Program-made: the position numbers and the translations under genes
Part shown: positions 11,461 through 61,366 of the stretch, in pieces
How positions within the stretch are numbered: the stretch's first letter is position 1
Layout: every line of letters starts with the position of its first letter
Assembly (NCBI GenBank): GCA_934635385.1
Contig: CAKTZI010000011.1
Location: forward strand, 20,488 to 84,487
Source: an uncultured Kiritimatiellota bacterium
GTDB lineage: Bacteria > Verrucomicrobiota > Kiritimatiellia > RFP12 > UBA1067
Length of the DNA: 64,000 nucleotides
Direction of reading: 5' to 3'
The notes under the pieces: generated by a model
Database searches by the model: none
Told to the model about the DNA's origin: nothing
What the model saw: the letters and a program-made list of their open reading frames with translations, nothing else

Positions 11461-12156
11461 TTAAAGGAGTGTCAGCATCTCGTCTGACGTCTTTCGCTCC
11501 CGCCTGTCTTGCAGTACTTCTTCCCTTGTCCGCATCGGTCGTCCCAAGAACGCTTCCACAAGAGCCTTTGCCCGTGTACGCTCCGCGTCTGTGGCATTGT
11601 AACGCTTGCAGTCGGAATCGAATATCCTTTCAAACGACGCCACATACGTCTCATATCGTCCCAGACAATATCGATAGGCGCGACGCCACGACTCGAATTT
11701 CTGGGGGTTATTCTTTCTCAACCGAACGGATTCGCCATTTGAGGCCATCGCTTTCCATCGGTCGAGTTCCCGTCTCATCCATCCGAATTGCCGAATTTTG
11801 GCTTTGCATTCGTCCTCAATCGTCCATCGCCCCGTCTCGCTCCACCGATAGGGCATCAGCCAACTCCAAACGTTTACGAACACACGGCATTGCCGTTCGT
11901 AGTCTTCGCCTTGAAGCTTGACGTCACACAATTTGTCGTCCAAAATCCGATAACAGGCCGCGCGAACGGCTCGGTTCGTCTCCGACAGGATCAGATCGCC
12001 CACGCGGTCGAGCGGGTCTCGCACATTCGGTTCGCCCAGCCGCCGAATGGCCCTGTCTGCCTTTTTCTCGACTTTGCGAAGGAAAGGGTCTTTTCCTCCG
12101 TCGCAGCCCACGACCGTCAGTGCTATCAGAATGCCGAATAAGATATGCCTTACCAT
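11461..12156 (-). CDS. Hypothetical lipoprotein.
   Basis: 231 aa. MVRHILFGILIALTVVGCDGG contains a lipobox. It overlaps the upstream gene by 7 nt (ATGGTAA). No recognisable family. Confidence 0.6.
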   Translation of the reverse strand: MVRHILFGILIALTVVGCDGGKDPFLRKVEKKADRAIRRLGEPNVRDPLDRVGDLILSETNRAVRAACYRILDDKLCDVKLQGEDYERQCRVFVNVWSWLMPYRWSETGRWTIEDECKAKIRQFGWMRRELDRWKAMASNGESVRLRKNNPQKFESWRRAYRYCLGRYETYVASFERIFDSDCKRYNATDAERTRAKALVEAFLGRPMRTREEVLQDRRERKTSDEMLTLL

Positions 12157-15100
12157 AGTTTCACCCCATCAAGATAAACAGATCCCAGCACCTCGCGGAC
12201 GGCCTCATGCCGCAGCTTGCGCACGCCCGCCGTGCCGAATTCGTCAATTGTGAACGTCTGCGTCTCGTCCGCCGCAAAGCACTTCCAAGGTTCCGCGCCG
12301 TCAGTCGTTTGGGGGACATTCCAGCCCAAGGGAATGCACCAGACGTTCTCCCCTGCAATCCATCCCACGGACAGGGATTCGGAGAGCTGTCCGCCCGGCG
12401 TCATGCGCGGATACGGTTGCGTACACGCCGCCGTGTCACGCGCATCAATGATGTTCTCGTCCAGGACGCGAAACCAGACTCCAGCACCATTCTCACGTGA
12501 GTGGCAGCGGTCTCCGTCAAAGTAGGAATGCGTGAAATAGCCGGTCTGAACGCCCATCGTCGATGGCACTTCCTCGACCCAGATCTCCTGGAACGAGACG
12601 TCCAGAGGAAGAACCTGTATGTCCAGCTGAAGTCCGATTCCGCCCGCGCTAAGCGACGAAAGCCCGTATGTGACTACGCCGGGATTGAGCGCGCGGACGC
12701 CTGACGGCTCCACGACCAGGATCGAGGGCGTATAGGAGACTCCGCCGCAAACGACTTCCAGCGGATTCGACTCGGCGTCAAGCGGGCATCGGTATGTTTT
12801 GTCCTTCTGCATCCTGCCACCGCCTTTCACATTCCACGAAACGTTCGCGACTTCTGGTTCAAAACCGCAGTCGATCAATTCATAAACGCCAAACTTATGT
12901 CGTCCTTCGCTTCCGTTTCCGCCTTCAATCTGAATCGGTCTAATTGTGACCTTGACCGCCGTCAGCGTCGCCTCGGACGTGATCTTCTCCCCGCTCTCCT
13001 CCTCGGTGAAGGTCGCGACGGCCTTGACGTCGCCCGCGCCGCCGCTCGCCGACTGCGCCCGGTACCTCACCTTGATCTTGAACGACTCGCCCGCCTCGAC
13101 CGTCCCCTCGCGCGGCAGGAACGAGCCGCCCACACGTTCGAGCCGTCCGCCGTCGCGCAGCTCGAAGGAATACGAGCCGCCCTTCGTCCCGCCGTAGACG
13201 CTGAACTCGGCTTCGGTCTCCGTCGAGCGCCGCGCGACCGTCTCGCCCGGCGCGTTCTCGTACTCGTCCTCGAAGATGATCGCGGACTCGGAGAACGTCG
13301 CCGAGACGGACAGCCCCTGCGGCTCGTGGTCAGGCTCGTCCTCATCGGGATACGTCGGCCTGTCGGGCGGCGACTCGTGCGAGCAGCCGCAGGGCCAGTC
13401 CGCGAACGACAGCTCGAAGCCCTCGAAGCGGCACGTGTACGTCCCGACCGCGCAGCCTCCGCAGCCGCAGTTCCCGTCGCAGCTGAACAGGGGCACGGTG
13501 AACGGCGGTGGCGGCGGCTCAAGGCAGCAGTAGTTGCCGTTCCACGACACGTCGGCGCCGTCGGGCGCGGGCGTGAAGCGCACGCGCCGTCCGCCTGACG
13601 CGGCGCGGGGCGCGACGGCGGACGCACGGAACGCGGCGACGGGCGAACCGTCCACGATCTCGCACCGGACAGGGCGGCAGACCGTCAGGTGTCCGTCCGC
13701 GTCTACGCCAATTTCGATGTCGGGATGGGATGCGCCGACGCAGACGAGCGTCAGCCGGCAATCGGCGGTGTAGGACTTGCCGAGCAGAAGGACGACGCGG
13801 TTCGTCTCGCCGGCCTTCGCGACGAACGATGGATCGGGCAGGTTCGACGCGCCGCTGCCCGTGAACGTCACGAGGGCGTTCGCGGCAGGGGCGACGAGAT
13901 CGACCCAGTAGTAGTTGTTGGAATGCGCGATGGAGGACAGGTCTTGGCGCGGGCCGAACTGCGGCTCGTCCGCCGCGACAAGCGGCGCGCCGTCCACGTC
14001 ATTCGGGATGCCGTCGTCGTCCCAGTCGTCAGGGTTGACGCGGCGATAGACGCGCTCGATGTCATTGGAGCGCGCGATGAAGTCGCCGTTCGGGAAGAGC
14101 TCGAGCTGCGCGTTGACGGCTGGATGGTCAACAACCTGTCTCTTGACCACGGAAGACACGGAAGCCACATTCGTGGACACAGAAAGGATTAGCGAAGAAT
14201 GCCCTTCGGGGTTCTCCAATCCGTTTTCTCCCAACATGTTCCCAGAAGTTGGGAGAACAGGGGTTGAGGAATCCCGAAGGGCTCCTTTCTCTAACCCATT
14301 CCGTGTCACCGGAGGCGTTTCATCTCTTTCCGTGGTTTGAGAAGAAGAAACGGACACTTCCGCTCTCTCATACGGGTTGCCGAGGAAGAAGTTCTCCCAC
14401 GTCAGCACGACCGAGCCGTTCGTGGTCGCCGCCGTCCAAAGATAGGACTGTCCGTGTCGCGCGAACATCGGCGCGCCGATGACGGCGATCTCGTTCGAGG
14501 CGTTCCGCAGCTGCGGGCGCACCTTGCCCCACGTGTGCGCCCAGAGCGACGTCACGACGTGGCGACCCAAAGGGAAAAGGAAGATGGAAGAAGGAAGAAG
14601 TGCGGAACGGTCCGCTTTCCTGTGCTGTCCGACGGCCTCGGATTCCGCAACAGAGGAGTTGTCCTCCGCACTTCTTCCTTTTCCCTTCTTCCCTTTTCCT
14701 TCCTCCCCCAACATCACCCATACACGCCCCCTGTAGGCGTCGGTGAGATGCCACGTGCTGACGAGCCGTGCGTTCGTCGGTCGCGTGTAGGAAACGGCCT
14801 TGTTCGTCCGCACCGCTTCGAGGCGGTAGCCCCGCACGACGTCGTTGGATGAGAGAGTGGGGTTGCTGTCGCCTAACGCGGAGTTGTAGGAGGAGGGGAG
14901 GCACGGAGTTTCTTTACTGTCTGTCGAAGTTTTGTCCACGGATTGACACGGATTATCACGGATTTGGATTTGTGTCGCTTCGTGTTGATTCGTGGATGAT
15001 CCTTCTCCCGATCCGTGTGAATCCGTGAAATCCGTGGATGCCTCTCCGTGCCTCCGCATCTCCTCATCCTCCGCATTAAGCGTCGCAGACCCCTCTGCGG

Positions 15101-15368
15101 ATGCCGCAGGCATCACTTCCTCAATTCGTGCCGATTCGTGAAGATTCGTGGCTACATTCGCCGGTTTCTGCGCGAAGACCGTCGCGACGACGACCGCCGT
15201 CACGAGGTCGGCCTTGCTGGACGGCGGCAGCCTAACGAACTGCTCCAACAACCCAAGCAGAAACTTTCGTGCGCACACAGCGGTCGCCGCCGCGAGGCAT
15301 CCGCCCGCAAGAGCCACGCAAGCCCACACGAAGTACGGTGTACGAAAGATTTCCGCAACTGTTCTCAT
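12150..15368 (-). CDS. Large membrane-anchored hypothetical protein (1072 aa) carrying several in-frame repeat-element insertions in its N-terminal third.
   Basis: Long ORF with an N-terminal TM helix (YFVWACVALAGGCLAAATAV) and the start preceded by TGATATAAT. The C-terminal two thirds have ordinary protein-like composition. No family recognised. Confidence 0.7.
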   Translation of the reverse strand: MRTVAEIFRTPYFVWACVALAGGCLAAATAVCARKFLLGLLEQFVRLPPSSKADLVTAVVVATVFAQKPANVATNLHESARIEEVMPAASAEGSATLNAEDEEMRRHGEASTDFTDSHGSGEGSSTNQHEATQIQIRDNPCQSVDKTSTDSKETPCLPSSYNSALGDSNPTLSSNDVVRGYRLEAVRTNKAVSYTRPTNARLVSTWHLTDAYRGRVWVMLGEEGKGKKGKGRSAEDNSSVAESEAVGQHRKADRSALLPSSIFLFPLGRHVVTSLWAHTWGKVRPQLRNASNEIAVIGAPMFARHGQSYLWTAATTNGSVVLTWENFFLGNPYERAEVSVSSSQTTERDETPPVTRNGLEKGALRDSSTPVLPTSGNMLGENGLENPEGHSSLILSVSTNVASVSSVVKRQVVDHPAVNAQLELFPNGDFIARSNDIERVYRRVNPDDWDDDGIPNDVDGAPLVAADEPQFGPRQDLSSIAHSNNYYWVDLVAPAANALVTFTGSGASNLPDPSFVAKAGETNRVVLLLGKSYTADCRLTLVCVGASHPDIEIGVDADGHLTVCRPVRCEIVDGSPVAAFRASAVAPRAASGGRRVRFTPAPDGADVSWNGNYCCLEPPPPPFTVPLFSCDGNCGCGGCAVGTYTCRFEGFELSFADWPCGCSHESPPDRPTYPDEDEPDHEPQGLSVSATFSESAIIFEDEYENAPGETVARRSTETEAEFSVYGGTKGGSYSFELRDGGRLERVGGSFLPREGTVEAGESFKIKVRYRAQSASGGAGDVKAVATFTEEESGEKITSEATLTAVKVTIRPIQIEGGNGSEGRHKFGVYELIDCGFEPEVANVSWNVKGGGRMQKDKTYRCPLDAESNPLEVVCGGVSYTPSILVVEPSGVRALNPGVVTYGLSSLSAGGIGLQLDIQVLPLDVSFQEIWVEEVPSTMGVQTGYFTHSYFDGDRCHSRENGAGVWFRVLDENIIDARDTAACTQPYPRMTPGGQLSESLSVGWIAGENVWCIPLGWNVPQTTDGAEPWKCFAADETQTFTIDEFGTAGVRKLRHEAVREVLGSVYLDGVKLW
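14197..14282. repeat. Imperfect inverted repeat (about 35-bp arms) inside a CDS.
   Basis: gcccttcggggttctccaatccgttttctcccaac pairs with gttgggagaacaggggttgaggaatcccgaagggc. Confidence 0.7.
14572..14707. repeat. Purine-rich/pyrimidine-rich inverted repeat element inside a CDS.
   Basis: gggaaaaggaagatggaagaaggaagaagtgcgga pairs with tccgcacttcttccttttcccttcttcccttttccttcctccc. Confidence 0.75.
14870..15152. repeat. Nested palindromic elements. The outer element is CGGAG-type (14870-15082), the inner is CACGGAT-type (14936-15037), and a CACGAAT-type tail follows.
   Basis: Outer arms are cgcctaacgcggagttgtaggaggaggggaggcacggag and ctccgtgcctccgcatctcctcatcctccgcattaagcg. Inner arms are ccacggattgacacggattatcacggattt and atccgtgtgaatccgtgaaatccgtgg. 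Confidence 0.8.
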
Positions 15369-20870: not shown

Positions 20871-21812
20871 ATGACGAGATCTGACAAGACACAGGGGCAG
20901 GGCCGAAAGAACAGGACGCACAAGACGCAGAGGACGCACAAGACAGGCTTGGCGAACCCTGCGGCCTGTTCGCCTTGCGGGTCTTCTGCTTCAGCGTCCC
21001 CTGCGTCCTGTTCGTCCCGTGCGTCCTGTTTGCCCCCAGCCGGCACCACCGCCCTGACCGACCCGGAGAAGGAGGCTCTGCGCGCGGCATTCTTCGCCGC
21101 GCTCGGGCCGAACGCCGCCGTCTTCAAGGAACTGCTGGAGCGCGCCCCCGAGCTGTGCTTCTACATGAAGGACCGCGAGGGCCGCATCATGGCCCTGAAC
21201 CGCCGCAACTGCGAAGTCTGCAACATCCGCAGCGAATGGGACGCGATCGGCCGCACGTCACGCGACCTCTTTCCGCCGACGCTCGCCGACGACTACATGG
21301 AGCTGGATCACGAGGTCCTGAAGACGGGGCGCCCCGTCCTCCAGCGCGTCACCGCCCACCCCGCCGACTACTCCAACCGCCTGATGATCTCCGACGTCTA
21401 TCCGCTGCGCGACCGGCGCGGACGCCTCATCGGCACGGCCCGCGCCTACCGGCTCACGAGCCGCGACTCGTCCGAGGCGCGCAACTACAACGCCCTGCGC
21501 GCCGTCGCGACCGAGATCGACCGGCGCTATGCCGAACCCCTTTCGCTCGACGCCCTGGCCCAGCGGGCGGGCATGTCGAAGAGCACGTTCAAGCGCACGT
21601 TCACCCGGCTTTTCGAGGTCTCGCCCGGCCAGTACCTGCTGCGCGTGCGGCTCAACGCCGCGCGGCGGCTGCTGGAGACGACGGACAAGCTCATCTCCGA
21701 CGTCGCGCTCGACTGCGGCTTCTACGACCAAAGCCACTTCAGCCGCCTCTTCCGCCGCGCGCGCGGCCTCACGCCCGGCGCCTATCGCCGCGCCCACGCG
21801 CAGACGGGATAG
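20871..21812 (+). CDS. PAS-domain AraC/XylS-family transcriptional regulator.
   Basis: The C-terminus LSLDALAQRAGMSKSTFKRTFTRLFEVSPGQYLLRVRLNAARRLLETTDKLISDVALDCGFYDQSHFSRLFRRARGLTPGAYRR is the AraC HTH. A PAS-like block (FYMKDREGRIMALNRRNCEV) precedes it. The first ~55 codons are encoded by a palindromic repeat element. Confidence 0.8.
   Translation: MTRSDKTQGQGRKNRTHKTQRTHKTGLANPAACSPCGSSASASPASCSSRASCLPPAGTTALTDPEKEALRAAFFAALGPNAAVFKELLERAPELCFYMKDREGRIMALNRRNCEVCNIRSEWDAIGRTSRDLFPPTLADDYMELDHEVLKTGRPVLQRVTAHPADYSNRLMISDVYPLRDRRGRLIGTARAYRLTSRDSSEARNYNALRAVATEIDRRYAEPLSLDALAQRAGMSKSTFKRTFTRLFEVSPGQYLLRVRLNAARRLLETTDKLISDVALDCGFYDQSHFSRLFRRARGLTPGAYRRAHAQTG
20909..21031. repeat. 123-bp inverted-repeat element (GGACGCA-type) within the 5' end of the AraC ORF.
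   Basis: Arms are gaacaggacgcacaagacgcagaggacgcacaagacagg and cctgcgtcctgttcgtcccgtgcgtcctgttt. The centre contains a small hairpin, ggcgaac...gttcgcc. Confidence 0.75.
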
Positions 21813-36087: not shown

Positions 36088-37506
36088 TCACTTGCCGACG
36101 CAGAAGCGCGAAAAGAGGCTGTCGAGCAGGTCGGACGAGTAGGTCGCGCCGACGAGCGCGCCAAGCGATTCGGCGGCCGCACGCACCGCGTTCCCCGCCA
36201 AAACAAGGTCAAGCGGCACATTTTGCAGGAGGGGCGTGAGGTGCGCGCGCGCCGCACACAGGGCCGACAACGCCCGGTCGTCAGGGGCGTCGGACGCCCC
36301 CTCCGACGCGGCGGACGCCGCCCGCCGTTCGAGCGCGGCCACAATCGCCCGCCTGAGTTCGCCCAGCCCCTCGCCCGTCTTCGCCGAGACGTTCAGCCCT
36401 TCGCCGCGCCCCAAATCGCACTTGGGATGGATGGGGAGGAGAGTGGGAGAAGCAGTCTCGGACGTGAGTGATGTGAGGGACGCGGGGGACGTGAGAGCCG
36501 AAAGAGACGCGAGGGACGCAGTGGAGCGAACGCTCGGTTCGCCTGACAAGTCAATCACAATGTCGGCTTCGGCGATCAACTTTTCGGCACGCTTCACGCC
36601 GGCGGCTTCGAGCGCGTCCTCCGTCTCGCGCAGCCCCGCCGTGTCAACGAGCCGAATCGGCCAGCCGTCCAAGTCCAGCCACGCCTCGACCGAGTCGCGC
36701 GTCGTGCCCGGCACATCGCTCACGAGCGCGCGGTTCTCCTCCAAGAGCGCATTCAGGAGCGAACTCTTGCCGGCGTTCGGCGGCCCCGCGAGAACGACCC
36801 GCGCGCCGTCGCGCAGGATGCGTCCCGCACGGACGCGCGTCGCCGCCGTGCCGAGCGCCGCGTCGAGCGCGGCGAGCGACGTGCGTAGCGACGCGAAGAA
36901 GCTGTCGGGCAGTTCGCCCTCGTCGATGTCGAGCGCGTGCTCCAGTTCGGACGACAGGTCGAGCGCGCGGTCATAGAGCGCGCGGTGCGCACGCGCGCGG
37001 CGTCCGGCCAGGCCGTCCAGCGCGGCGTCCGCCGCGCGCGCGGTCTTCGCCTGAATGAGGTCAAGAACGCTTTCCGCCTGGTCATAGTCGAGCTTGCCGT
37101 TCAGAAACGCGCGCTCGGTGAACTCGCCGCGCCGCGCGAGCCGCGCCCCGGCGGCGAAGCAGGCCTCCAGCACACGGCGCGGCGTGACCGCCCCGCCGTG
37201 GCACTGGAACTCGACGACGTCTTCGCCCGTGTAGGAATGGGGCGCGCGAAAGGCGAGAACGACGGCGGTGTCGAGGGGGGGGAGGTTTGGGAGGTTTGGG
37301 GGTTTGGAAAGTTTGGGGGGTTGGGAGGTTGGAAACAGGGCGCAGACGCGCGCGCACGGCAAGCCACCGGACGGAGGCGCGAAGCGGCCGCGCGTCAGGC
37401 GCGTGGCGACGGCGAACGCCTCAGGCCCCGAAACGCGCACGACCGCGACCCCGGCAGGGCCGGGCGCGGTCGCAATCGCTGCGATGGTCTCATTCTGATT
37501 CAGCAT
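36088..37506 (-). CDS. mnmE: tRNA modification GTPase MnmE (TrmE).
   Basis: TIAAIATAPGPAGVAVVRVSG, YTGEDVVEFQCHGG, GPPNAGKSSLLNAL, and the C-terminal FCVGK. It carries two low-complexity in-frame insertions. Confidence 0.9.
   Translation of the reverse strand: MLNQNETIAAIATAPGPAGVAVVRVSGPEAFAVATRLTRGRFAPPSGGLPCARVCALFPTSQPPKLSKPPNLPNLPPLDTAVVLAFRAPHSYTGEDVVEFQCHGGAVTPRRVLEACFAAGARLARRGEFTERAFLNGKLDYDQAESVLDLIQAKTARAADAALDGLAGRRARAHRALYDRALDLSSELEHALDIDEGELPDSFFASLRTSLAALDAALGTAATRVRAGRILRDGARVVLAGPPNAGKSSLLNALLEENRALVSDVPGTTRDSVEAWLDLDGWPIRLVDTAGLRETEDALEAAGVKRAEKLIAEADIVIDLSGEPSVRSTASLASLSALTSPASLTSLTSETASPTLLPIHPKCDLGRGEGLNVSAKTGEGLGELRRAIVAALERRAASAASEGASDAPDDRALSALCAARAHLTPLLQNVPLDLVLAGNAVRAAAESLGALVGATYSSDLLDSLFSRFCVGK
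36459..36525. repeat. GGGACGYGAG-type short tandem repeats inside mnmE.
   Basis: gacgtgagtgatgtgagggacgcgggggacgtgagagccgaaagagacgcgagggacgc encodes SLASLSALTSPASLTSLTS. Confidence 0.65.
37281..37336. repeat. GGTTTGG (CCAAACC) ~10-bp tandem units inside mnmE, in the opposite orientation to the murI copy relative to the coding strand.
   Basis: ggaggtttgggaggtttgggggtttggaaagtttggggggttgggaggttggaaac encodes QPPKLSKPPNLPNLPP. Confidence 0.8.
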
Positions 37507-37520
37507 CGCCGCACGTGATT

Positions 37521-37548
37521 TCTCCGTGCCTCCGTGTCTCCGTGTGAG
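37521..37548. repeat. Solo half-arm of the CGGAG-type element in the mnmE/antiporter intergenic spacer.
   Basis: tctccgtgcctccgtgtctccgtgtgag is nearly identical to 52546-52573. Confidence 0.7.
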
Positions 37549-44764: not shown

Positions 44765-45859
44765 TCAGCTGATGCGGAGCGGCATCAGGACGTAGAGGAA
44801 CGGAATCGAGCACTTGATCACCGCCGGCGAATGTCCGTCGGAGAGGTTCATAATCACCTCATCGTCGTCAATCGACTTCAGGCAGTCCATCACATACGAT
44901 GGATTGAACATGATCTCGATCTTCTCGCCCGCGTACTTGATCGGAACCTCGTCCTTCGCCTCGCCGATGTCGGACGCGGCAGACGTCACGGTCAGCTTGC
45001 CCTCGGAGAAGATGAGCTTCGTCGAGTGAGCCTCGTCCATCGTCATGACGCTCGCGCGGTCAAGCGCGTCCAGAAGCAGCTGGCGATCGACCTCAATGTG
45101 CTCCTTCGTGTCGACGGGAATCACCTGACGGTAGTTCGGGTAGGCATCGTCCATCAGCTTCGAGTAAATCATCAGGTTGTCGAGCTTGAAGCAGATCTGC
45201 GACTTCTGAACCATCATCGAGAGTTCCGTGTCGCCGTTCAGCGAACGCTGAAGTTCGCCCACGGCCTTGGACGGCAGAACGATGTCCTTCTCGGCATCCT
45301 TCGGGAACTCGACTTCCTGCTCGACGAGCGCGAGACGGCGACCGTCCGTCGCGACCATCGTGAGCTTCGCGTCCTTGAAGCTCAGGAGAACGCCCTTCAG
45401 CGTCCGGCGCGTGTCGTCCTGGCTCGCCGCGTAGGAGACCTTGCGCAGCATGTCGCGGAACGTCGCCTGCTGAATCGCGTAGGCGAACGCCTCCTCGTCC
45501 TTCGGCAGCTTCGGAAACTCGGATTCAGGCAGCCCGGCGAACTTGAACTTCGCGTTGCCCGCGCAGATCGTCGCGCGGTCTTTCGCGTCCGTCTCGACTT
45601 CGACCTCACCTTCGGCGACCTTCGAGATCGCGTTGAAGAGAAGCTTCACGGGAATCGTCGTCGCCCCTTCTTCCGCAACTTCGCACGGACAGACCGCCTT
45701 GATGGAAATGTCGAGGTCTGTCGTCGTCATGGTGAGCTCTGCGCCGCGCGCCTCCAAAAGGACGTTCTGGAGAATCGGCAACGAGCCCTTGCCGGCGACG
45801 ATGTTCTGGACGGACTTCAGTCCTTCGAGAAACTTGGAGCGGACGATCTTGAATTTCAT
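44765..45859 (-). CDS. dnaN: DNA polymerase III beta sliding clamp.
   Basis: MKFKIVRSKFLEGLKSVQNIVAGKGSLPILQNVLLEA...LMPLRIS. 364 aa, located immediately downstream of dnaA. Confidence 0.92.
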   Translation of the reverse strand: MKFKIVRSKFLEGLKSVQNIVAGKGSLPILQNVLLEARGAELTMTTTDLDISIKAVCPCEVAEEGATTIPVKLLFNAISKVAEGEVEVETDAKDRATICAGNAKFKFAGLPESEFPKLPKDEEAFAYAIQQATFRDMLRKVSYAASQDDTRRTLKGVLLSFKDAKLTMVATDGRRLALVEQEVEFPKDAEKDIVLPSKAVGELQRSLNGDTELSMMVQKSQICFKLDNLMIYSKLMDDAYPNYRQVIPVDTKEHIEVDRQLLLDALDRASVMTMDEAHSTKLIFSEGKLTVTSAASDIGEAKDEVPIKYAGEKIEIMFNPSYVMDCLKSIDDDEVIMNLSDGHSPAVIKCSIPFLYVLMPLRIS

Positions 45860-45892
45860 GGTTTGTTCCTTCTTAAATGTGCGTGTACGTGA

Positions 45893-45901
45893 ATTGTATC
45901 A
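45893..45901 (-). promoter_or_regulatory. Extended -10 TGATACAAT upstream of dnaN.
   Basis: The reverse complement of attgtatca is tgatacaat. An AAGGAA Shine-Dalgarno sequence follows. Confidence 0.4.
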
Positions 45902-45955
45902 AATAATACTAATTGAGGATAGAGTGTTTTCTATTTCTAATAGTTTTGTCGATAA

Positions 45956-45964
45956 TGTGGATAA
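45956..45964 (-). promoter_or_regulatory. Perfect consensus DnaA box TTATCCACA in the dnaA-dnaN spacer.
   Basis: tgtggataa on the plus strand, within an AT-rich 266-bp spacer. A second, weaker box (tgttgattg) is at 46009. Confidence 0.6.
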
Positions 45965-46125
45965 CTCGTCGAAAGCCTTGTTTTATTGGTGTTCATGCTC
46001 TTTTGCCCTGTTGATTGAAAATTTGACAAGGTGAAGAGCGAAGTTGACTGTGCTGCGCCGCTGTTCATGTCTGTTCATATTCCGCCGAGTTGTCTTCAGC
46101 CTGTCGTCAGTTCCTCTTCGGCTTG

Positions 46126-47544
46126 TCAATTGAAGTTGTCCTTGATGGAACAGCCGAATTCGGCAAGGATTTCGTTCAGTTCGGATTTGAGTTCGGGTTC
46201 GACATCGAACCGTTTTTCGATGTTCCGTACGCCATGGAGGATTGTGGCATGCGTTTTCTTGAAGGACTGCGCAATCTCCGGCAGGCTCTTCGTCGTGTAC
46301 TTGCGCGAGATGTACATGGCCATCTGGCGTGGCGTCACGAGCGACTGCGTCCGCTCGGCAGACAGGATCTGCTCGATCGAGACGTCGTATTTTTTCGCGA
46401 CGGACTGCTGGATTTCCTTGATCGTCAGGCTTCGAAGCGATTTCTCCTTCTCGATGTATTCCTTGAGAATGTGCGTCAGAACATCGTTCGTCAGCGGTGT
46501 CGTCGGTTCGACCTGGCGGAAGATGTGGATTCTGTTCAAGGCCCCTTCCATCGCGCGCACGTGGCTCTTGATCGTGTCGGCGATGAACTCTAGTGCGTTG
46601 TCGGGGATGCTCGGCACCATCGACTCGGACTTCTTCTTCAGAATCGCGAGACGCGTCTCGTAGTTTGGCGACTCGATTTCCTGCACCATGCCGCCCTCGA
46701 AGCGCGAAATGAGGCGCGCCTCGATGGAAGGCAGGTTCTTCGGCGCGACGTCGGACGTCATGACGATCTGGCTGTGCGCCTGCTGAAGGACGTTGAACGT
46801 GTTGAAGAACTCCTCCTGGCATTGCTTGCCCTTTTGAAGGAACTGCACGTCATCGACCATCAGCAGATCCATCTTTCGGTAGCGGTTGCGGAAACTCTCC
46901 ATGGTTCCGTTCTGCAAGGAGTTTACGTATTCGTTCAGGAATGTCGCGGCCGTCAGGTAGCAGATGTTGAGCGACGGGTTCTTCTTTTTCAGCTCGTTGC
47001 CGATCGCCTGCATGAGATGCGTCTTTCCGAGCCCGGTGCCGCCATGGATGAACAGCGGATTGTAGACGCTCTTGCCGGGATTCGCGACGACGCCCTGCGC
47101 GGCGGCAAGTGCCCAGCTGTTCGACGAGCCGCGCACGAAATTGTCGAACGTGTAGTCTTCGTTGAGCGGCATCGTCGAGATCAGTGCCGCTTTTGGATGG
47201 GCTTTCGGGACTGATTCTGTGCTGGACACCGCCGGTTCTGTCGGGATGACGACTGGCGGCTTGGCCCTTTCGCTGGAGCGGAATTCAATGCCGACTGGGG
47301 TGTCTGATGAAACGAGTTCAAGGCATTTCTTCAGCTTGTCCGAATACTTGTCGCGCAGGAAGTCCGCCGTGTAGGCGTTCGTGAGCGTGATGACGAAGAG
47401 GCCGTTTTCGCGCGTGACGGACGTAATCGTGGAAAAGTAGCGTTCGACTTGGCCGCGCTCTTCGGCAGAAAACAACGTGGAAAGGTAAGTCTGCTTGGCC
47501 CTTTCCCATGTCTCTTTCGATTTGATGTCAATCGTTTCGTTCAT
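46126..47544 (-). CDS. dnaA: Chromosomal replication initiator DnaA.
   Basis: FIHGGTGLGKTHLMQAIGN carries the Walker A motif. Also MVDDVQFL, and the C-terminal HTH domain ARQMAMYISRKYTTKSLPEIAQSFKKTHATILHGV. Confidence 0.95.
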   Translation of the reverse strand: MNETIDIKSKETWERAKQTYLSTLFSAEERGQVERYFSTITSVTRENGLFVITLTNAYTADFLRDKYSDKLKKCLELVSSDTPVGIEFRSSERAKPPVVIPTEPAVSSTESVPKAHPKAALISTMPLNEDYTFDNFVRGSSNSWALAAAQGVVANPGKSVYNPLFIHGGTGLGKTHLMQAIGNELKKKNPSLNICYLTAATFLNEYVNSLQNGTMESFRNRYRKMDLLMVDDVQFLQKGKQCQEEFFNTFNVLQQAHSQIVMTSDVAPKNLPSIEARLISRFEGGMVQEIESPNYETRLAILKKKSESMVPSIPDNALEFIADTIKSHVRAMEGALNRIHIFRQVEPTTPLTNDVLTHILKEYIEKEKSLRSLTIKEIQQSVAKKYDVSIEQILSAERTQSLVTPRQMAMYISRKYTTKSLPEIAQSFKKTHATILHGVRNIEKRFDVEPELKSELNEILAEFGCSIKDNFN

Positions 47545-52084: not shown

Positions 52085-54592
52085 TCACTTGTTCAATGTC
52101 GTGTGGCTGCCGCGTTTGATCAAGACGGCGAGGACGGCGATGTCGGCTGGGTTCACGCCGGGTATGCGGCTTGCCTGTGCGAGCGTTTCGGGACGGAATT
52201 TCTTCAGTTTCTCACGGCTCTCATAGCGCACAGCCAAGCACTTGTCATAGTCGAGCCATTTCGGAATGACGAGTGCTTCGTCCTTCTTGGCTCGTTCAGC
52301 CGCTTTCTCCTCCTGCTCAATGTACGGTGCATAATGACGCATAATCATAACTTCTCGGTCAATTCGAGAAAGGCCGTTGAGATTGGTTGGCGTGAAAGGA
52401 GTTGTAATGGGATGGCTCACACGGAGGCACGGAGACACGGAGGTTTTTAACATTGAAGACACGAAAACGTCACTTGCGGGCACGAATTTCGTGTCTGAAT
52501 GTCCGTTTCTTCTATTTTCGTGTTTATCACATTCTCTTACAAAATTCTCCGTGCCTCCGTGCCTCCGTGTGAGGCTTTCATTTTTATTGAGCCTTGTCAA
52601 AATCTCCTGATACTCTTCTTCTATCGCATCAAGCGTTTCCTTCGACAGAATGCCAATGCGCTTGGCCGCAGACAGCAATCGATAGTAGGCATTGTCCTGA
52701 CGCAGGATGAGACGTCGTTCGGCACGGCTCGTGAACATACGGTACGGCTCGTCCGTGCCCTTCGTGACAAGATCGTCAATCATGACGCCAATGTAGGCAT
52801 CCTGTCGGCTGAGAACGAGCGGCTCTTCGCCTTTGACCTTCAATGCGGCATTGATGCCCGCCATGAGGCCCTGCGCGGCCGCTTCTTCGTAGCCCGTCGT
52901 GCCGTTGATCTGTCCGGCGAAGAAAAGACTGGGAATGCGCTTCGATTCGAGCGTGTGTGTCAGCTCGCGTGCATCGATGCTGTCGTATTCGATGGCATAG
53001 GCGTAGGCGAGAAAATCGGCATGTTCAAGTCCGGCAATCGAATGCACCATCTCTTCCTGTACCTTTTCGGGTAGCGAACAGCTCAAGCCGTTCGGATAGA
53101 TGACCGTGCCGTCCTTGTCCTCAGGTTCGAGAATGACGTGGTGCTGATGGGCTTCGGCGAAGCGTACGATCTTGTCCTCAATGCTCGGACAGTACCGAAC
53201 ACCCGTTCCGACGATTTTTCCGCTATAGAGAGCCGAAACCGCGAGGTGGTCACGGATGATTTGGTGTGTCTTGTCGTTTGTATGTGTCATCCAACACGGC
53301 AACTCCGGCAAATTGTTCCACGTGGAACAACTTGGGAATGCCTGCGGCGCTGAACGCGGAGAAGACGGAGAGGCGGAGACGCGGAGTTTCAGTTCAGATA
53401 CACTCTCCAAATCATCTCCGTGTCTCTCATTCTCCATTCCCTCCGCGTTAAGCGACAGCAACCCGGTCGAACAGGGAGAAGCCTGCGGCGCTGAACACGG
53501 AGAAAACGAAGAGGCAGAGGTGCGGAGTCTCGGATCTGGTGCTTCATCCTTTAAAGAAACTTCATCTCTTCCATTCTCCTTTATCTTCGTGTTAAGCGTC
53601 GCAGACCTCTCTCGCTCTCCCTCGCTCCGTGTCAATCCGTGATAATCCGTGGCCAACTCACACGGAGGCACGGAGGCACGGAGGTTTGTCGGGTTGTCTA
53701 CAGTTTCTCCGTGCCTTCCATTCTCCCTCACCTCCGTGTTCAGCGTCGCAGACATCTCTCCCTCGCTCTCAATCCGTGCCAATCCGTGATAATCCGTGGC
53801 TAAAAAAGTGTGTTCCACGTGGAACAATGGGCGAGGGGTGGCGCCATCTTGTCGCTGGCAGACGCTGAAATCACAGCTTGAAGCCTTGAGACGCGGTGGC
53901 GTACCTGTCTTCAGGCGAATCAGCTCGAAACCAAGAGCTGAAAGGCTCTCTGAAAGCTGATTGACGGCGGGGCGTCCGTCGCCGCCGCTTTCGCGGCACT
54001 GGTCGCCGATCCAAACGCGGCCGCGCAGGGCCGTGCCGCTCGTAATGACGACGGTTCGCGCGGTGAGTGTGCCGTGACATTCCGTTTTCACGGAATGCAC
54101 GGGATAGAGAACTGGTGTTAAATCAGCGTTTAGTTTGGCTGACGATTGGCTGGTTTGAAATGAATCAGCGTTTTGTCTAATGAGTTTTGAAGGCTGCCCG
54201 ACTTCAATACCGATCACGGCATCTTCGAGAACGGTCAGGTTGGGTTGCGCGGCGATGACGGCTTGCATACGCGCGGCGTATTCCCTCTTTGCGCATTGGC
54301 AGCGCGTCGCCCAGACGGCGGGGCCTCGGCTCAGGTTGAGAATCTTCGCCTGAAGGGCGGTGGCATCCGCGTTCTTGCCCATTTCGCCGCCCAGCGCGTC
54401 GAGCTCGCAGACGAGGTGGCTCTTGGCCAAGCCGCCGATGGACGGGTTGCAGGGCATGCGCGCAATGGCATCTGCACGGGAGGTGACGAGAAGAGTCGAC
54501 ACGTTCATGCGCGCCGCCGCAAGGGCGGCTTCGGCGCCGGCATGTCCGCCGCCCACGACAATGACGTCAAACTGTGACTGTAAAAAAGACAT
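52085..54592 (-). CDS. mnmG: tRNA uridine-5-carboxymethylaminomethyl modification enzyme MnmG (GidA). At 835 aa it is enlarged by three in-frame insertions.
   Basis: [66 protein letters not shown] and [15 protein letters not shown]. Typical MnmG proteins are about 620-630 aa. The ATG at 54592 lies 6 nt after TGCTATAAT. Confidence 0.9.
52416..52573. repeat. CGGAG-type palindromic element with a nested CACGAA-type core, inside the mnmG 3' region.
   Basis: Arms are ctcacacggaggcacggagacacggagg and tctccgtgcctccgtgcctccgtgtgag. Confidence 0.85.
53313..53827. repeat. Composite of three palindromic repeat units inside mnmG, bracketed by two copies of the palindrome TTGTTCCACGTGGAACAA.
   Basis: Palindromes at 53313-53330 and 53811-53827. 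Units at 53340-53462, 53481-53652 and 53653-53800. The unit ends (gcctgcggcgctgaac... and ...gttaagcgacagcaac) are shared with 60042-60167 and 61047-61316. Confidence 0.85.
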
Positions 54593-57714: not shown

Positions 57715-57733
57715 ATGCAGAATTATCGCGCAA

Positions 57734-57823
57734 GCGGGTCCGGAGAAGCTTCGCAACGGTGCGAAGTGCCGAAGGTGTAACTCCCCGAAAGGGTCGGGGA
57801 CGATCTCTCAGGCAAAAGGACGG
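57734..57823 (+). ncRNA. Glycine riboswitch (single aptamer).
   Basis: cGGAGAAg, P2 hairpin gcttcgca/tgcgaagt, GCCGAAGGTGTAA, P3 hairpin tcccc/gggga, then CTCTCAGGCAAAAGGAC. This matches the conserved glycine-aptamer core. It lies upstream of an AGCS symporter, a known genomic context for this riboswitch. Confidence 0.8.
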
Positions 57824-57840
57824 AAAGGCAAGACAAAACA

Positions 57841-59376
57841 ATGATGCAGGCGGCCACATGGCTGGATACGTTCACGGACTACGTGAACTTGGTTGACGAC
57901 AAGGTCTGGGGAACTTCGTTCGAGATCGGCGGGTTTCCGGTTCCCCTCCTGATTATCCTGATCCTCTTCGGCGGAATCTGGCTCACGGTCCGCCTCGGCG
58001 GCATGCAGTTCGTCCAGCTGCCGCGCGCGCTCAAGTACATGTTCCGGAACGAGAAGGTCGAGCATGGCGCGAAGGGCGAGGTCACGAGCTTCGGCGCGCT
58101 CTGCACCGCGCTCTCGGCGACGATCGGCACGGGCAACATCGTCGGCGTCGCGACGGCCTACGTCGCGGGCGGACCCGGCGCGATCTTCTGGATGTGGCTC
58201 GCTGCGCTCTTCGGCATGGCGACGAAGTACTCCGAGGGCCTCCTGGCCGTCAAGTACCGCGAGCACGACGAGGCGACCGGCCACGTGCTCGGCGGGCCGT
58301 TCTACTACATCGAGCGCGGCATGGGCCCGAAGTGGAAGTGGCTCGCGTGCGTGTTCGCGTTCTTCGGCTGCTGCGTCGGCCTCTTCGGCATCGGCACGTT
58401 CTCGCAGGTGAACTCGATCTGCGGCTCGTTCAACACGTTCTTCAAGAGCTACATCGACACGGCGGACGTCCATAACTTCACGGTGTTCGGCAACAGCTAC
58501 TCGTGTGCGACGATATTCGGCTCGATCCTGCTGGCGTTCATGGTCGGCATGGTCGTGATCGGGGGCCTGAAGCGCATCGCGAAGGTGAGCGAGAAGGTGA
58601 TTCCGCTCATGGTCATCCTCTACGTCGCGTTCTCGCTCCTCCTCGTCTTCTGCAACCTCGGCAAGATCCCGTCGGCGATCGCGACGATCGTGCAGTCGGC
58701 GTTCGGCCTTCAGGCGGCGGCGGGCGGCGCGCTCGGCGCGATCATCGCGGCGATGCAGAAGGGCATCGCGCGCGGCATCTTCTCGAACGAGGCGGGCCTC
58801 GGCTCCGCCCCGATCGCGGCGGCGGCCGCGCAGACGAAGGAACCCGTGCGCCAGGGCCTCGTCTCGATGACGGGAACCTTCCTCGACACGATCATCGTCT
58901 GCTCGATGACGGGCCTCGCCCTCACGATGACGAACCAGCCGATCTCGGCCGAGTCGTTCAAGGGCGTGTCCGAGCTCTACTGCGCGAGCGCCGCGACCGG
59001 CGCCGAGGCCACGATGAAGGCATTCGCCGTCGGCATCCCGTTCCTGCCGGCGATCGTGACGGACGCGCTCGTGATGGTCTCGCTCGTCCTCTTCGGCTTC
59101 ACGACGATCCTCGGCTGGGACTACTACTCGGAGCGCTGCCTCGAATACCTGACGAACGGCCGGATGGGCCCCGTCTACGTCTACCGCTGGCTCTACATCC
59201 TCGCCGTCTTCATCGGGCCGTACATGACGATCTCGGCGGTGTGGGGCATTGCGGACATCTTCAACGGCCTCATGGCCGTGCCGAACATGATCGCGCTGCT
59301 CGCGCTTTCGGGCGTCGTCGCGGCGGAGACGAAGATCTACTTCAAGCGGCTCAAGGCCGGCGAGATCACGGAATAG
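57841..59376 (+). CDS. Sodium:alanine/glycine symporter (AGCS family).
   Basis: GEVTSFGALCTALSATIGTGNIVGVATA and ARGIFSNEAGLGSAPIAAAAAQT are signature AGCS blocks. Confidence 0.9.
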   Translation: MMQAATWLDTFTDYVNLVDDKVWGTSFEIGGFPVPLLIILILFGGIWLTVRLGGMQFVQLPRALKYMFRNEKVEHGAKGEVTSFGALCTALSATIGTGNIVGVATAYVAGGPGAIFWMWLAALFGMATKYSEGLLAVKYREHDEATGHVLGGPFYYIERGMGPKWKWLACVFAFFGCCVGLFGIGTFSQVNSICGSFNTFFKSYIDTADVHNFTVFGNSYSCATIFGSILLAFMVGMVVIGGLKRIAKVSEKVIPLMVILYVAFSLLLVFCNLGKIPSAIATIVQSAFGLQAAAGGALGAIIAAMQKGIARGIFSNEAGLGSAPIAAAAAQTKEPVRQGLVSMTGTFLDTIIVCSMTGLALTMTNQPISAESFKGVSELYCASAATGAEATMKAFAVGIPFLPAIVTDALVMVSLVLFGFTTILGWDYYSERCLEYLTNGRMGPVYVYRWLYILAVFIGPYMTISAVWGIADIFNGLMAVPNMIALLALSGVVAAETKIYFKRLKAGEITE

Positions 59377-59388
59377 GCCCGGCAGGCG

Positions 59389-59859
59389 ATGACCGTTGCG
59401 GACAGACTGGTCGCGCTCCTGAAGGCGCAGGGACTGACGTGCGCGACGGCCGAAAGCTGCACAGGCGGCGGCGTGGGGGCGGCGATCACCGCCGTCCCCG
59501 GCTCCAGCGCGGTCTTCCTCGGCGGCGTCATCTCCTACGCGAACGCGGTCAAGCGGGACGTCCTCGGCGTGTCGCCGGCGACGCTGGAGACGGTCGGCGC
59601 GGTCTCGCCCGAAACGGCCGCGCAGATGGCGGACGGTGCGCGACGGCTCCTGAAGGCGGATCTCGCCGTTTCCGTGACGGGCATCGCCGGGCCGGACGGC
59701 GGGAGCGCGGCGAAGCCGGTCGGCCTCGTCTGGTTCGGCCTCGCGACGAGGGACGGCGTGCGCACGGAGAAGGCGATCTTCGCGGGCGACCGCGCGGCCG
59801 TGCGCGTTCAGTCCGTCACGCACGCGCTCGGCATGCTGACGGTGGGAGCGTCCGCATGA
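59389..59859 (+). CDS. CinA C-terminal domain / nicotinamide-nucleotide amidohydrolase PncC-like.
   Basis: TCATAESCTGGGVGAAITAVPGSSAVFLGGVISYANAVKRDVLGV...GIAGPDGG. Confidence 0.85.
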   Translation: MTVADRLVALLKAQGLTCATAESCTGGGVGAAITAVPGSSAVFLGGVISYANAVKRDVLGVSPATLETVGAVSPETAAQMADGARRLLKADLAVSVTGIAGPDGGSAAKPVGLVWFGLATRDGVRTEKAIFAGDRAAVRVQSVTHALGMLTVGASA

Positions 59860-61355
59860 TGAGGCGCACCGTCATTCTCGCGGCGGGGGATTTTCCGCCG
59901 CGCGGCTCGGAGCCCGAACGGCTCCTGCTGTCGGCGGCGCGTGTCGTCGCCTGCGATTCGGCGGCAGCGACGTATCGGCAGCGCTTCGGCCGATGGCCGG
60001 ATGTCATCATCGGGGATCTGGACAGTTTCTTGCCAAAAGACGCCTGCGGCGCTGAACACGGAGGAGACGGAGAGGCGGAGACGCGGAGAGTCGAGCCACA
60101 CGCCCTATCCTTCCAAAGAACTCCGTGCCTCCCTTCCTCCATCACCTCCGTGTTAAGCGAAAGCAACAAAGACGCCTGCGGCGCTGAACACGGAGAAACG
60201 GAGGCACGGCGGAGGGTTGTGCGGATTGATGATGATGAGACGAACGACCTGGACAAGGCGATTGCCTATTGCCGGACGCAGGGGTGGGCGGATTTGGTCA
60301 TCGTCGGCGCGACGGGCAGGCGCACGGATCACGCGATCGGCAACGTCTATCGTGCGCTCGCGGCGGAAGTCCCGATCGTCGAGGCCGAGGGCGCTTTCCT
60401 GCCCGTGCGCGGCAAGCTGACGTTTCGGACGTGGAAGGACGCGGGCGTGTCCGTCTTCGCGCCTGATCCGGCGACGCGGATGACGTCGCGTGGCTTGCGC
60501 TGGAAGCTGGACGGCGTGCGGTTCGCGAACCCGTACTGCGCGACGCTGAACCGCGCATCATCCGAAACGGTGACGGTCACGAGTACGCATCCGGCGTTCG
60601 TCTACGCGGCGCGCAATCCCGCCGCCGTGCGGGCGGTTGTCGCGCTCGGCTCGAACGTCGGTGCGCGCGCGACGTATCTGAAGCGGGCGCTCGCGGCGCT
60701 CGCGGCGCTGCCCGAGACGCGGCTGCTGGACGTGAGCGCGGTGCGCGAAACGGAGCCGGTGGACGTCCCGGCGGAATTTGCCGCGCAGAAGTTCCTCAAC
60801 CAGGCGGCGGTCTTCGAGACGACGCTTGCGCCACTTGCCTTCTCGCGCGCGATGCACGCGGTCGAGGATCGGCTGGGGCGTGTCCGCACGGTGCGGAATG
60901 GCCCGCGCACGATTGATCTCGACCTGATTCTCTTCGGCGACGTGCGCCTGGACACGTCGGAACTGACCCTGCCCCATCCGCGTGCGCAGGAACGCGCCTT
61001 TGTCCTCGATCCTCTCAACGAACTCGGCATCAGACTTCCTCTTGTGGCCTGCGGCGCTGAACGCGGAGGTGACGGAGCGTCGGAGACGCGGAGCCCCGTA
61101 CCGAGTGTCCCATCCCCCACAGAACCTCCGTGTCTCCCATCCTCCGCTATCTCCGTGTTAAGCGAAAGCAACTCGGTCGTGCGGGAAGAGGCCTATGGCG
61201 TTCAACGCGGAGGAGGCGGAGAGTCGGAGACGCGGAGTTCCGTGTCGGGCGCCCCATCTCCAAAACAACCTCCGTGTCTCCCCTCCTCCATCACCTCCGT
61301 GTTAAGCGACAGCAACCCGGTCGGACAGGAAGATGCCTACGGCGTTCAACGGTAA
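59856..61355 (+). CDS. Fusion of thiamine pyrophosphokinase (N-terminal) and HPPK/FolK (C-terminal), interrupted and extended by in-frame repeat elements.
   Basis: TPK part: IIGDLDS, DDDETNDLDKAI and GATGRRTDHAIGN. HPPK part: VVALGSNVG, RNGPRTIDLDLILFG and LTLPHPRAQERAFVLDPL. No stop separates the two halves. The ATG overlaps the upstream stop (ATGA). Confidence 0.8.
   Translation: MMRRTVILAAGDFPPRGSEPERLLLSAARVVACDSAAATYRQRFGRWPDVIIGDLDSFLPKDACGAEHGGDGEAETRRVEPHALSFQRTPCLPSSITSVLSESNKDACGAEHGETEARRRVVRIDDDETNDLDKAIAYCRTQGWADLVIVGATGRRTDHAIGNVYRALAAEVPIVEAEGAFLPVRGKLTFRTWKDAGVSVFAPDPATRMTSRGLRWKLDGVRFANPYCATLNRASSETVTVTSTHPAFVYAARNPAAVRAVVALGSNVGARATYLKRALAALAALPETRLLDVSAVRETEPVDVPAEFAAQKFLNQAAVFETTLAPLAFSRAMHAVEDRLGRVRTVRNGPRTIDLDLILFGDVRLDTSELTLPHPRAQERAFVLDPLNELGIRLPLVACGAERGGDGASETRSPVPSVPSPTEPPCLPSSAISVLSESNSVVREEAYGVQRGGGGESETRSSVSGAPSPKQPPCLPSSITSVLSDSNPVGQEDAYGVQR
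60042..60216. repeat. One complete 126-bp CGGAG-type unit plus a truncated second unit inside the TPK domain.
   Basis: gcctgcggcgctgaacacggag...ctccgtgcctcccttcctccatcacctccgtgttaagcgaaagcaac. The direct repeat aaagacgcctgcggcgctgaacacggag occurs at both ends. Confidence 0.85.
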
Positions 61356-61366
61356 GCGAAAGCAAC
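61047..61366. repeat. Two tandem 144-bp units (126-bp palindromic element plus 18-bp linker) and a collapsed unit in which the two termini are joined directly. Together they form the 3' tail of the TPK-HPPK ORF.
   Basis: Units start at 61047, 61191 and 61335. The third is gcctacggcgttcaacgg|taagcgaaagcaac and contains the stop codon. Confidence 0.85.

Follow-up and report, generated by a model that had tools for sequence, protein, structure and literature searches.

The described system closest in behaviour to the element considered here is that of the Rickettsia palindromic elements (RPE), which Ogata et al. reportedly described in 2000 and 2002. These are dispersed palindromic repeats of about 100-150 bp, a large minority of which lie in frame in unrelated, often essential open reading frames (ORFs), in both orientations, and their peptides are translated as tolerated surface segments. 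RPE are AT-rich and their host is an obligate intracellular alphaproteobacterium. A sequence of another kind, parS, is centromere-like, and the loading of ParB at it segregates the origin region. Here we describe a gene in which both kinds of sequence probably meet. In a 64,000-nucleotide stretch of DNA from an uncultured Kiritimatiellota bacterium (contig CAKTZI010000011.1; the whole stretch is called the window below) the mnmG gene contains a modular block of palindromic repeats of about 480 bp (53340-53799), bracketed by two copies of a 16-bp palindrome. We consider it likely that two things are superimposed here, namely an ancient pair of parS sites in a dispensable loop of MnmG and RPE-like hairpin repeats which have accumulated in frame between them.

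Several other systems should be kept in mind. Repetitive extragenic palindromic (REP) sequences are defined as imperfect palindromes of 20-40 bp that end in a GTAG or CGTC tag. Genomes of the Planctomycetes-Verrucomicrobia-Chlamydiae (PVC) group, e.g., Opitutus terrae, are reported to contain REP-type palindromes, including intragenic ones (PMC3733652). The preliminary description of this DNA had supposed that nothing comparable was known from PVC bacteria; this was too broad in view of those palindromes, but it holds for the present repeat family, for which no paper with the arm or terminus strings was found in the searchable literature. Bacterial MITEs (miniature transposable elements with inverted repeats) with in-frame copies are represented by the Coxiella QMITEs (PMC5896051). 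Among the parS sites of Pseudomonas aeruginosa, nine of ten are intragenic (PMC4368675).

The window is part of the replication-origin region in a gut-dwelling member of Kiritimatiellia, and its nearest loci belong to metagenome-assembled genomes (MAGs) from the human gut of Hadza and Nepal subjects. The loci of relatives compared with the window are designated by L-numbers (L001, L119 etc.), and in the congeners among them the flanking genes are 87-95% identical to those of the window. The features on which the main argument depends are the following.

52085..54592, minus strand: mnmG (gidA) coding sequence, 835 amino acids from MSFLQ, a single unbroken ORF with three lineage-specific inserts (identified by ORF, Pfam, PDB matches and dN/dS).
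53314..53329, unstranded: predicted parS site, promoter-distal copy, exact 16-mer TGTTCCACGTGGAACA, read as CSTWNN in the mnmG frame.
53811..53826, unstranded: predicted parS site, promoter-proximal copy, exact 16-mer TGTTCCACGTGGAACA, read as LFHVEH in the mnmG frame.
44765..47544, minus strand: dnaN and dnaA, the origin-region marker about 6 kb from the parS pair (Pfam DnaA and beta-clamp).

Pfam finds GIDA in two stretches of the mnmG ORF with the insert between them, together with SAM_GIDA_C, and the product matches PDB structures of MnmG. In insert-free relatives MnmG has 578-605 amino acids. The identical protein was called on 8 contigs from independent samples and assemblers.

If the two palindromes exactly flank the repeat block, then we can ask: Do they belong to the block or to the gene? 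The 16-mer TGTTCCACGTGGAACA matches the 64 kb exactly twice, both times in mnmG, whereas 0.19 matches are expected by chance and none of 100 shuffles gave two. It is letter-for-letter the parS2/parS3 sequence of P. aeruginosa and the consensus of P. putida (PMC4368675, PMC7022226), that is, a palindrome of the chromosomal consensus TGTTNCACGTGAAACA or its GC-rich variant. Its position is origin-proximal, about 6 kb from dnaA (46126-47544) and dnaN (44765-45859), and the synteny of dnaA/dnaN and mnmG is unchanged in L119 and L120.

The conservation of the palindrome was evaluated by aligning the MnmG of the window with MnmG from 35 related loci. The canonical palindrome is present in 35 of these 36 Kiritimatiellia genes, nearly always in two or more copies (three or four in some genes), and all copies lie at one shared loop between the conserved MnmG blocks PRPLF and LPELPCW. 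There are 72 copies of the 14-mer, and 71 of them keep the full 16-mer. No copy was found in the 3-kb flanks of the 36 genes or inside 42 mnmG genes of Bacillota type, and in 283 kb of other Kiritimatiellia loci the palindrome occurred only in two loci overlapping mnmG contigs. For the first copy, which reads (L/M)FHVE(H/Q), the phase is 2 in 32 of 35 genes; the later copies are in phases 2, 1 and 0 (16, 14 and 7 copies) and read FHVEQ, CSTWN or VPRGT. Since the 16 bases are kept irrespective of the frame in which they are read, it is the DNA and not the protein on which selection acts. By sequence, position and conservation the bracketing palindromes belong to the parS class, and ParB would be expected to bind them. 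The one gene lacking the canonical form is the mnmG of a divergent Kiritimatiellia MAG (L003:391-2661), where the same loop contains a variant, GTTTCCACGTGGAAAC, five times; each half-site is longer by one base pair, and the reading is VSTWK. It may represent a parS/ParB variant that arose by co-evolution. Nothing on parS inside mnmG was found in the searchable literature, and the confinement of parS to one mnmG loop, in three frames and across a class, appears to be undescribed there.

This comparison also bears on the origin of the duplication. The preliminary description was right that two exact copies of the palindrome flank the block, and it suggested a target-site or recombination signature. 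Such an explanation, with the palindromes as a target-site duplication or a scar of the block's insertion, would suit two identical 17-bp copies placed exactly at the borders. However, the pair is present in nearly all Kiritimatiellia mnmG genes, many of which have just 28-50 bp between the copies and no repeat units, some genes hold three or four copies, and the sequence is that of a known parS. The spacing in the window is 497 bp, with the second copy in a different frame (CSTWN vs FHVE), and equals 2 modulo 3, so that a deletion or excision between the copies would frameshift mnmG. Because insert-free relatives keep both copies, the parS pair is older than the insert and is not its target-site duplication; we assign this explanation almost no probability.

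What keeps the insert in frame? The preliminary description gave unit lengths of 123 or 126 bp, and 141 or 144 bp with the linker, and these are correct, but the units are not frame-friendly by nature. Single units are open in two of six frames against 0.8-1.9 expected from shuffles, and the lengths of intergenic copies fall into all three residue classes modulo 3. Frame preservation thus reflects a survivorship filter and is not inherent in the element. Taken whole, the 481-bp block has a single open frame out of six, that of mnmG, and only 1 of 5000 shuffles was open in this frame. The parS-to-parS intervals in six lineage variants (497, 653, 410, 203, 128 and 416 bp) are all 2 modulo 3.

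The selection acting on the gene was compared between the window and L119. The conserved core is under strong purifying selection (dN/dS 0.068 over 549 codons, dS 0.46), while the inserts are near neutral, with dN/dS 0.67 for the three together (277 codons) and 0.57-0.79 singly (35-164 codons). The kept frame, the dN/dS of the core and the identical protein on 8 contigs indicate that the gene is functional and that the insert must be read through; its translation is therefore presumed. In an AlphaFold model built from 62 homologues the MnmG residues 250-431 and 678-734 have pLDDT (predicted local distance difference test) values of about 30-44 and no secondary structure, and they are flanked by modelled strands and helices of the core, so the insert peptides are predicted to be disordered. 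When the insertion points were mapped onto solved MnmG structures, as the preliminary description had proposed, they fell between the aligned blocks of the Aquifex aeolicus and Escherichia coli proteins.

Read-through is opposed by the idea that the insert is removed before the mature protein is formed, whether by intron-like loss from the RNA, by bypass during translation or by intein excision, or that mnmG is a pseudogene. The two parS copies and the long arms could indeed close a very stable stem round the insert in the mRNA. Removal would, however, relax the selection on frame and stops, yet the block is open in the frame of the gene only, and all six lineage variants keep it. Rfam gave no intron or ribozyme match, intein motifs are absent, and Pfam gives only GIDA-type domains on mnmG. 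The decaying pseudogene, which the preliminary description had named as a possible refutation, is excluded by the dN/dS of the core. Taken as a whole, this explanation seems to us extremely improbable.

The units themselves were located by repeat finding and self-BLAST of the window, which confirmed the earlier reading of about 480 bp of palindromic units in frame within a single 835-residue ORF. The three unit boundaries proposed earlier correspond to the composites found (A1; A2 with a C arm; hybrid with a C arm). Family A has 22-bp terminal inverted repeats round CGGAG-periodic arms, family B has (CACGGAGG)3 arms, and family C has (CACGGATTNN)3 arms. In mnmG they are arranged as follows.

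53340..53462, plus strand: A-family unit A1, 123 bp, termini GCCTGCGGCGCTGAAC... and ...GTTAAGCGACAGCAAC; mnmG reads the reverse complement.
53463..53480, plus strand: 18-bp linker of pattern YCGGTCGNNCRGGRAGAN, which recurs at 61173-61190 and 61317-61334.
53481..53606, plus strand: A-family unit A2, 126 bp, with the right-end variant ...GTTAAGCGTCGCAGAC.
53625..53652, plus strand: solo C-type arm, ATCCGTG three times with a period of about 10.
53657..53753, plus strand: hybrid unit of a B-type left arm, (CACGGAGG)x3, a centre and an A-type right arm; the centre is orthologous to the single unit of L002.
53771..53799, plus strand: solo C-type arm, second copy of the 89-nt direct repeat D1.
52416..52573, unstranded: B-type hairpin in the C-terminal domain of MnmG, arms CTCACACGGAGG... 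and ...CCTCCGTGTGAG, 91% complementary.

The last of these is one of two further inserts in mnmG to be added to the preliminary description, the other being a variable loop at about 54100-54200. L001 and L119 have an ortholog of the B-type hairpin, and L004 and L005 have variants of it. A tract of about 350 bp round it (52314-52670) is about 96% identical to L119, against about 87% for the rest of mnmG, and its local dS is 0.06 against 0.46 for the core. DNA-level constraint on the hairpin could account for this low divergence, but the tract overshoots the element by about 100 bp on each side, and a recombination tract is equally likely. The third variable loop (amino acids 132-167) holds a 14-nt direct repeat, AATCAGCGTTTAGT / AATCAGCGTTTTGT, and its length among relatives varies from 0 to about 80 amino acids.

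Copies of the same modules were found elsewhere in the window.

59856..61355, plus strand: TPK-HPPK fusion gene carrying A units in forward orientation (Pfam).
60042..60215, plus strand: complete A unit (60042-60167) and a solo A left arm (partial copy, 60174-60203) in a loop of the TPK catalytic domain.
61047..61366, plus strand: two A units (61047-61172 and 61191-61316) with linkers and a termini-only remnant (61335-61366).
14856..15154, unstranded: nested composite in the N-terminal region of gene 12150-15368, with outer A arms, an inner C-type hairpin and a further ATTCGTG-type arm.
37520..37548, unstranded: solo B-type arm in the intergenic spacer upstream of mnmE.

The A units at 61047-61366 form a C-terminal tail of about 100 amino acids on HPPK. 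As had been reported, with the correct termini and linker pattern, TPK-HPPK reads the A unit in the orientation opposite to that in mnmG: the fusion gene reads it forward (ACGAEHGGDGE...PCLPSSITSVLSESN) and mnmG reads the reverse complement. The fused ORF 59856-61355 joins TPK, with its catalytic and substrate-binding domains, to HPPK, a pyrophosphokinase of the folate pathway, and the fusion is kept in L119 and L120. Gene 12150-15368 contains two more long hairpins, at 14176-14307 and 14570-14701; one has 60-nt arms, 77% complementary, with a 12-nt loop, and the other has purine-rich, GGAAG-periodic arms, 86% complementary. The N-terminal 400 residues of this 1072-residue secreted-type protein resemble a dump of palindromic modules. 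Another hairpin, at 20909-21030, has the architecture of B and C modules with arms of a different motif (GGACGCA, 8-9-nt period, 86% complementary). Its place is the 5' end or the leader of ORF 20871-21812, whose product, judging by its C-terminal sequence, we take to resemble an AraC-type regulator.

Beyond the window, the exact 22-nt A terminus was found at 39 loci in nine MAG genomes (among them the four congeners, a goat-rumen member of Kiritimatiellae and bins labelled Lentisphaerae); it was absent from a collection of viral contigs. An nhmmer scan of these A-terminus loci, the mnmG loci and the window gave 65 A-family stretches, or 59 sites after adjacent hits were merged and two duplicate loci were dropped. 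About 20-25 sites are enclosed by ORFs reaching 50-60 codons or more beyond them in either direction, and 30 or more are found between genes or at gene ends, so the intragenic share is roughly 40% as an approximate figure; calling intragenic copies by GC3 is unreliable because GC3 is modest in mnmG and its relatives. A similar intragenic proportion is known for RPE-1 in Rickettsia conorii. The A units are in frame in both orientations (reverse in mnmG, forward in TPK-HPPK, both in gene 12150-15368), and further host ORFs occur in L085, L086/L097, L093 and L106. The RPE-like behaviour proposed in the preliminary description, with dispersed units placed in frame and in both orientations in ORFs of essential type, is thereby borne out. 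The right end of A after CTCCGTGTTMAGCG has three variants, AMAGCAAC, TCGCAGAC and CCGCAGGC, the last of which gives a perfect terminal inverted repeat. The centres of the A units measure from 0 to about 90 nt, and several hold a nested C-type hairpin. Rfam at gathering thresholds returned only a glycine riboswitch in the window, and at permissive thresholds the hairpins match only generic microRNA-precursor models, far below the cut-offs.

The content of the loop changes quickly among relatives, and nested or duplicated architectures were seen in L001, L004, L002, L005 and L119. Between its parS sites L004 has a single B element, and L001 has the same element plus 282 bp, which start at the motif CTCACACGGAG common to both. 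The single unit of L002 has a centre orthologous to that of the third unit in the window. In L119 the interval measures 653 bp, and an A arm there holds another palindrome, nested twice. The right arm of the A unit encloses a further palindromic element, about 90 bp long (CTCGCGGGCCCTTGCGGGCAGTTCGCTACGCTCACTGTC...GCGTTTCTGCGGCGCATGTG), twice in L119:11077-11500 (minus orientation) and once in L005:3990-4100. At the TPK site the window has a full unit and a solo arm, L106 and L119 have a right arm, linker and left arm, and L087 has the left arm only. The HPPK tail is made of 2.3 units in the window and of one in L106, while L119 has no unit there. Both places thus vary between genomes about 93% identical, by in-frame indels or by presence and absence. 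These turnover patterns agree with insertion and later recombination or slippage between the arms that units share, and they leave transposition unproven.

Could the repeats be a functional part of the centromere, a cruciform or hairpin which spaces the sites, loads ParB or blocks its sliding? They lie exactly between the two parS sites, their arms are better conserved than their centres, and the fold of the block, as RNA or DNA, is far more stable than that of shuffles (z = -8.5; predicted mRNA structure). However, in most Kiritimatiellia the parS pair is free of these repeats, copies of the modules are present in unrelated genes and intergenic DNA away from any parS, and what lies between the sites changes rapidly from one congener to another. 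We therefore consider this role highly unlikely.

The arms of the B type have a much wider distribution. The exact 23-mer of (CACGGAGG)3 was found in at least 120 stretches, and those listed come from Planctomycetota, Acidobacteriota, Myxococcota, Verrucomicrobiota, Lentisphaerota, Gemmatimonadota, Spirochaetota, Bacteroidota, Alpha- and Gammaproteobacteria, Desulfobacterota and Actinomycetota. Hairpins of (CACGGAGG)n and (CCTCCGTG)n occur in at least 10 bacterial phyla (L123-L242; e.g., L139:4844-4955, L139:6182-6292 and L149:6628-6687). Among the 120 loci listed, 33 carry the strict 15-mer in the arrangement CACGGAGG...CCTCCGTG within 250 nt, and pairs in this order number 36 against 1 in the reverse order. 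The outer flanks of the B-type hairpins are palindromic but lineage-specific, and the centres are unrelated. A shuffled control octamer gave 109 loci without an inverted pair, mostly long tandem arrays. With a relaxed arm pattern, 27 of 43 pairs had no long ORF spanning them and a few lay inside long ORFs. Most copies appear to be intergenic, and some resemble bidirectional terminators. The arms carry Shine-Dalgarno-like GGAGG and anti-Shine-Dalgarno-like CCUCC, and the A arms (TGAACACGGAG..., with CGGAG every 8-9 nt) resemble degenerate forms of this hairpin family. Neither an Rfam family nor a paper in the searchable literature matches the hairpin.

A broader explanation can be proposed. The (CACGGAGG)n...(CCTCCGTG)n hairpin would then be an undescribed element of many phyla and not a lineage-specific selfish repeat, the mnmG modules would be its local members, and its octamer arms would be kept by a shared mechanism. 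The arm-keeping mechanism may be recognition by a universal host factor or a common templated building process. As a separate matter, the whole chromosomal centromere array of Kiritimatiellia may be placed in the coding sequence of mnmG. We offer this tentatively and hold it to be less likely than not. The presence of the hairpin in at least 10 phyla hints at a widespread element without an entry in family libraries or searchable papers.

The explanation we prefer is narrower. The parS sites would have been seated in a structurally dispensable loop of MnmG since before Kiritimatiellia diversified, and because this loop tolerates nearly any sequence, it would serve as a safe harbour for hairpin modules. 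In the genus of the window it would have been filled by the modular A, B and C repeats, which are dispersed through intergenic and coding DNA, nest in each other's centres and would multiply locally by recombination or slippage between shared arms. Within genes only frame-keeping, stop-free copies would survive, and the surviving inserts would be translated, as with RPE, as disordered and nearly unconstrained peptide loops. The mode of spread that we consider most likely is by a non-autonomous, trans-mobilised element together with homologous exchange.

The serious rival to this mode of spread is a local mutational process, in which the modules arise by slippage or unequal recombination of periodic motifs, or by templated 3'-end addition at repaired breaks, and are not mobile. 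It agrees with the arms made of 8-10-nt periods, with unrelated hairpin centres of about 10 to 190 nt, with the differences between L001 and L004 and between the window and L002, which begin and finish inside shared arm motifs, and with the strict 36 to 1 orientation of the pairs. It agrees also with several results that count against the preferred explanation. No target-site duplication was found in the 40-nt flanks of 25 full-length A copies, whose element boundaries are somewhat uncertain (linker, extension). The search for a mobilising enzyme likewise gave nothing: there is no transposase or RAYT-like gene (REP-associated tyrosine transposase) in the window, and no gene family recurs beside the 120 B-type loci listed, where clustering of 2304 ORFs brought up only kinases and ABC ATPases, in 6-7 loci. 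Unequal recombination accounts equally well for the local structures. Other parts of the preferred explanation are weakened as follows. In an alignment of 24 A copies the covariation term is 0.14 and two pairs show compensatory change; the arms are conserved by sequence, a result that gives no support either for or against a selected hairpin structure. The insert peptide is without protein homologues found, and its spread over host proteins rests on about 20 loci only; a search with 158 residues of it in a collection of 5.8 billion proteins gave 223 word candidates, none scored, and was uninformative, probably owing to low complexity. The AlphaFold model of MnmG is moderate overall, with a mean pLDDT of 59. 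A scan of 30 window ORFs gave neither a ParB nor a ParA domain, and no parB or parA gene lies within the window.

Against a purely local process stand the specific 22-bp A termini and the 18-bp linker, which are common to unlinked loci in nine genomes, and the outer flanks of the B-type hairpins, which are themselves palindromic. The shuffled control octamer yields tandem arrays and never inverted pairs, and a purely local process leaves the dispersal of one specific sequence unaccounted for. We judge the local process unlikely on balance, and keep to dispersed hairpin modules that accumulate in frame between older parS sites.

Some further observations concern neighbouring genes. The mnmE gene (36088-37506), whose product is the partner of MnmG, has the low-complexity segments PTSQPPKLSKPPNLPNLPPL and STASLASLSALTSPASLTSLTSETASPT, which resemble lineage-specific inserts. 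A glycine riboswitch aptamer (57730-57833; 47.6 bits, E = 1.2e-6) lies directly upstream of a Na+/alanine-type symporter gene (57841-59376). In L119 an additional gene for a 476-residue ATPase_2 / AAA_16 protein (L119:3134-4564) is situated between cinA and TPK-HPPK, while the window is without it.

How, then, does this locus compare with the known systems? With the parS of the Pseudomonas / Myxococcus variant TGTTCCACGTGGAACA it shares the identical 16-bp palindrome, the origin-proximal position, the location inside coding sequence and the clustering of copies. In contrast to known chromosomal parS, the whole cluster is here in one loop of one housekeeping gene throughout a class, with 1-5 copies of the predicted ParB sites in three reading frames and one lineage (L003) with a variant. 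Such a cluster is a clean natural case of DNA-level and protein-level constraint sharing the same bases. It also illustrates that a conspicuous duplicated palindrome within a gene can be a conserved cis-acting chromosome element, and it is usable as a marker of the origin region in Kiritimatiellia MAGs.

The repeat units resemble REP sequences and bacterial interspersed mosaic elements (BIMEs), which are mobilised by RAYT and tagged with GTAG/CGTC, in being dispersed palindromes, mostly intergenic with some in ORFs, and such elements occur in PVC genomes (PMC3733652). However, the units described here are 90-190 bp long, that is, 3-5 times longer, their termini are GCCTGCGGCGCTGAAC and CTCACACGGAGG with no GTAG/CGTC tag, their arms are tandem octamers, and a RAYT gene is found neither within the window nor recurring beside the 120 B-type loci listed. 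Like MITEs such as the Coxiella QMITEs and the Neisseria Correia elements, which have terminal inverted repeats, small size, many copies and an occasional in-frame, peptide-adding insertion, they possess terminal inverted repeats of about 22 bp, small size and dispersed copies (65 stretches or 59 sites in 9 genomes and the window). They differ from MITEs in showing no visible target-site duplication at the 25 full-length A copies and in having hypervariable centres, which are conserved in MITEs, and no parent insertion sequence was identified. The palindromic coding repeat PARCEL is also readable in both orientations inside genes, but it is a structured amphipathic repeat in surface proteins of Mollicutes and protists (PMC2996958), whereas the peptides here are of low complexity, have a dN/dS of about 0.67 and are predicted to be disordered.

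The likeness to RPE is the closest, since both are dispersed palindromic repeats with in-frame copies in unrelated ORFs and in both orientations. In contrast to RPE, the units here are GC-rich and modular, with arm motifs of 8-10-nt period, nesting and tandem arrays with an 18-bp linker, and the host is a free-living gut member of Kiritimatiellia. Homology with RPE is implausible by composition and host, and the likeness is one of behaviour only. By this analogy the repeats in mnmG can be regarded as the RPE phenomenon in a new phylum, carried by an unrelated, modular and GC-rich family. The gene thus provides a well-documented case, from outside Rickettsia, in which palindromic repeats have colonised housekeeping ORFs and kept the frame, and direct evidence that selection holds the frame while the encoded peptides drift.

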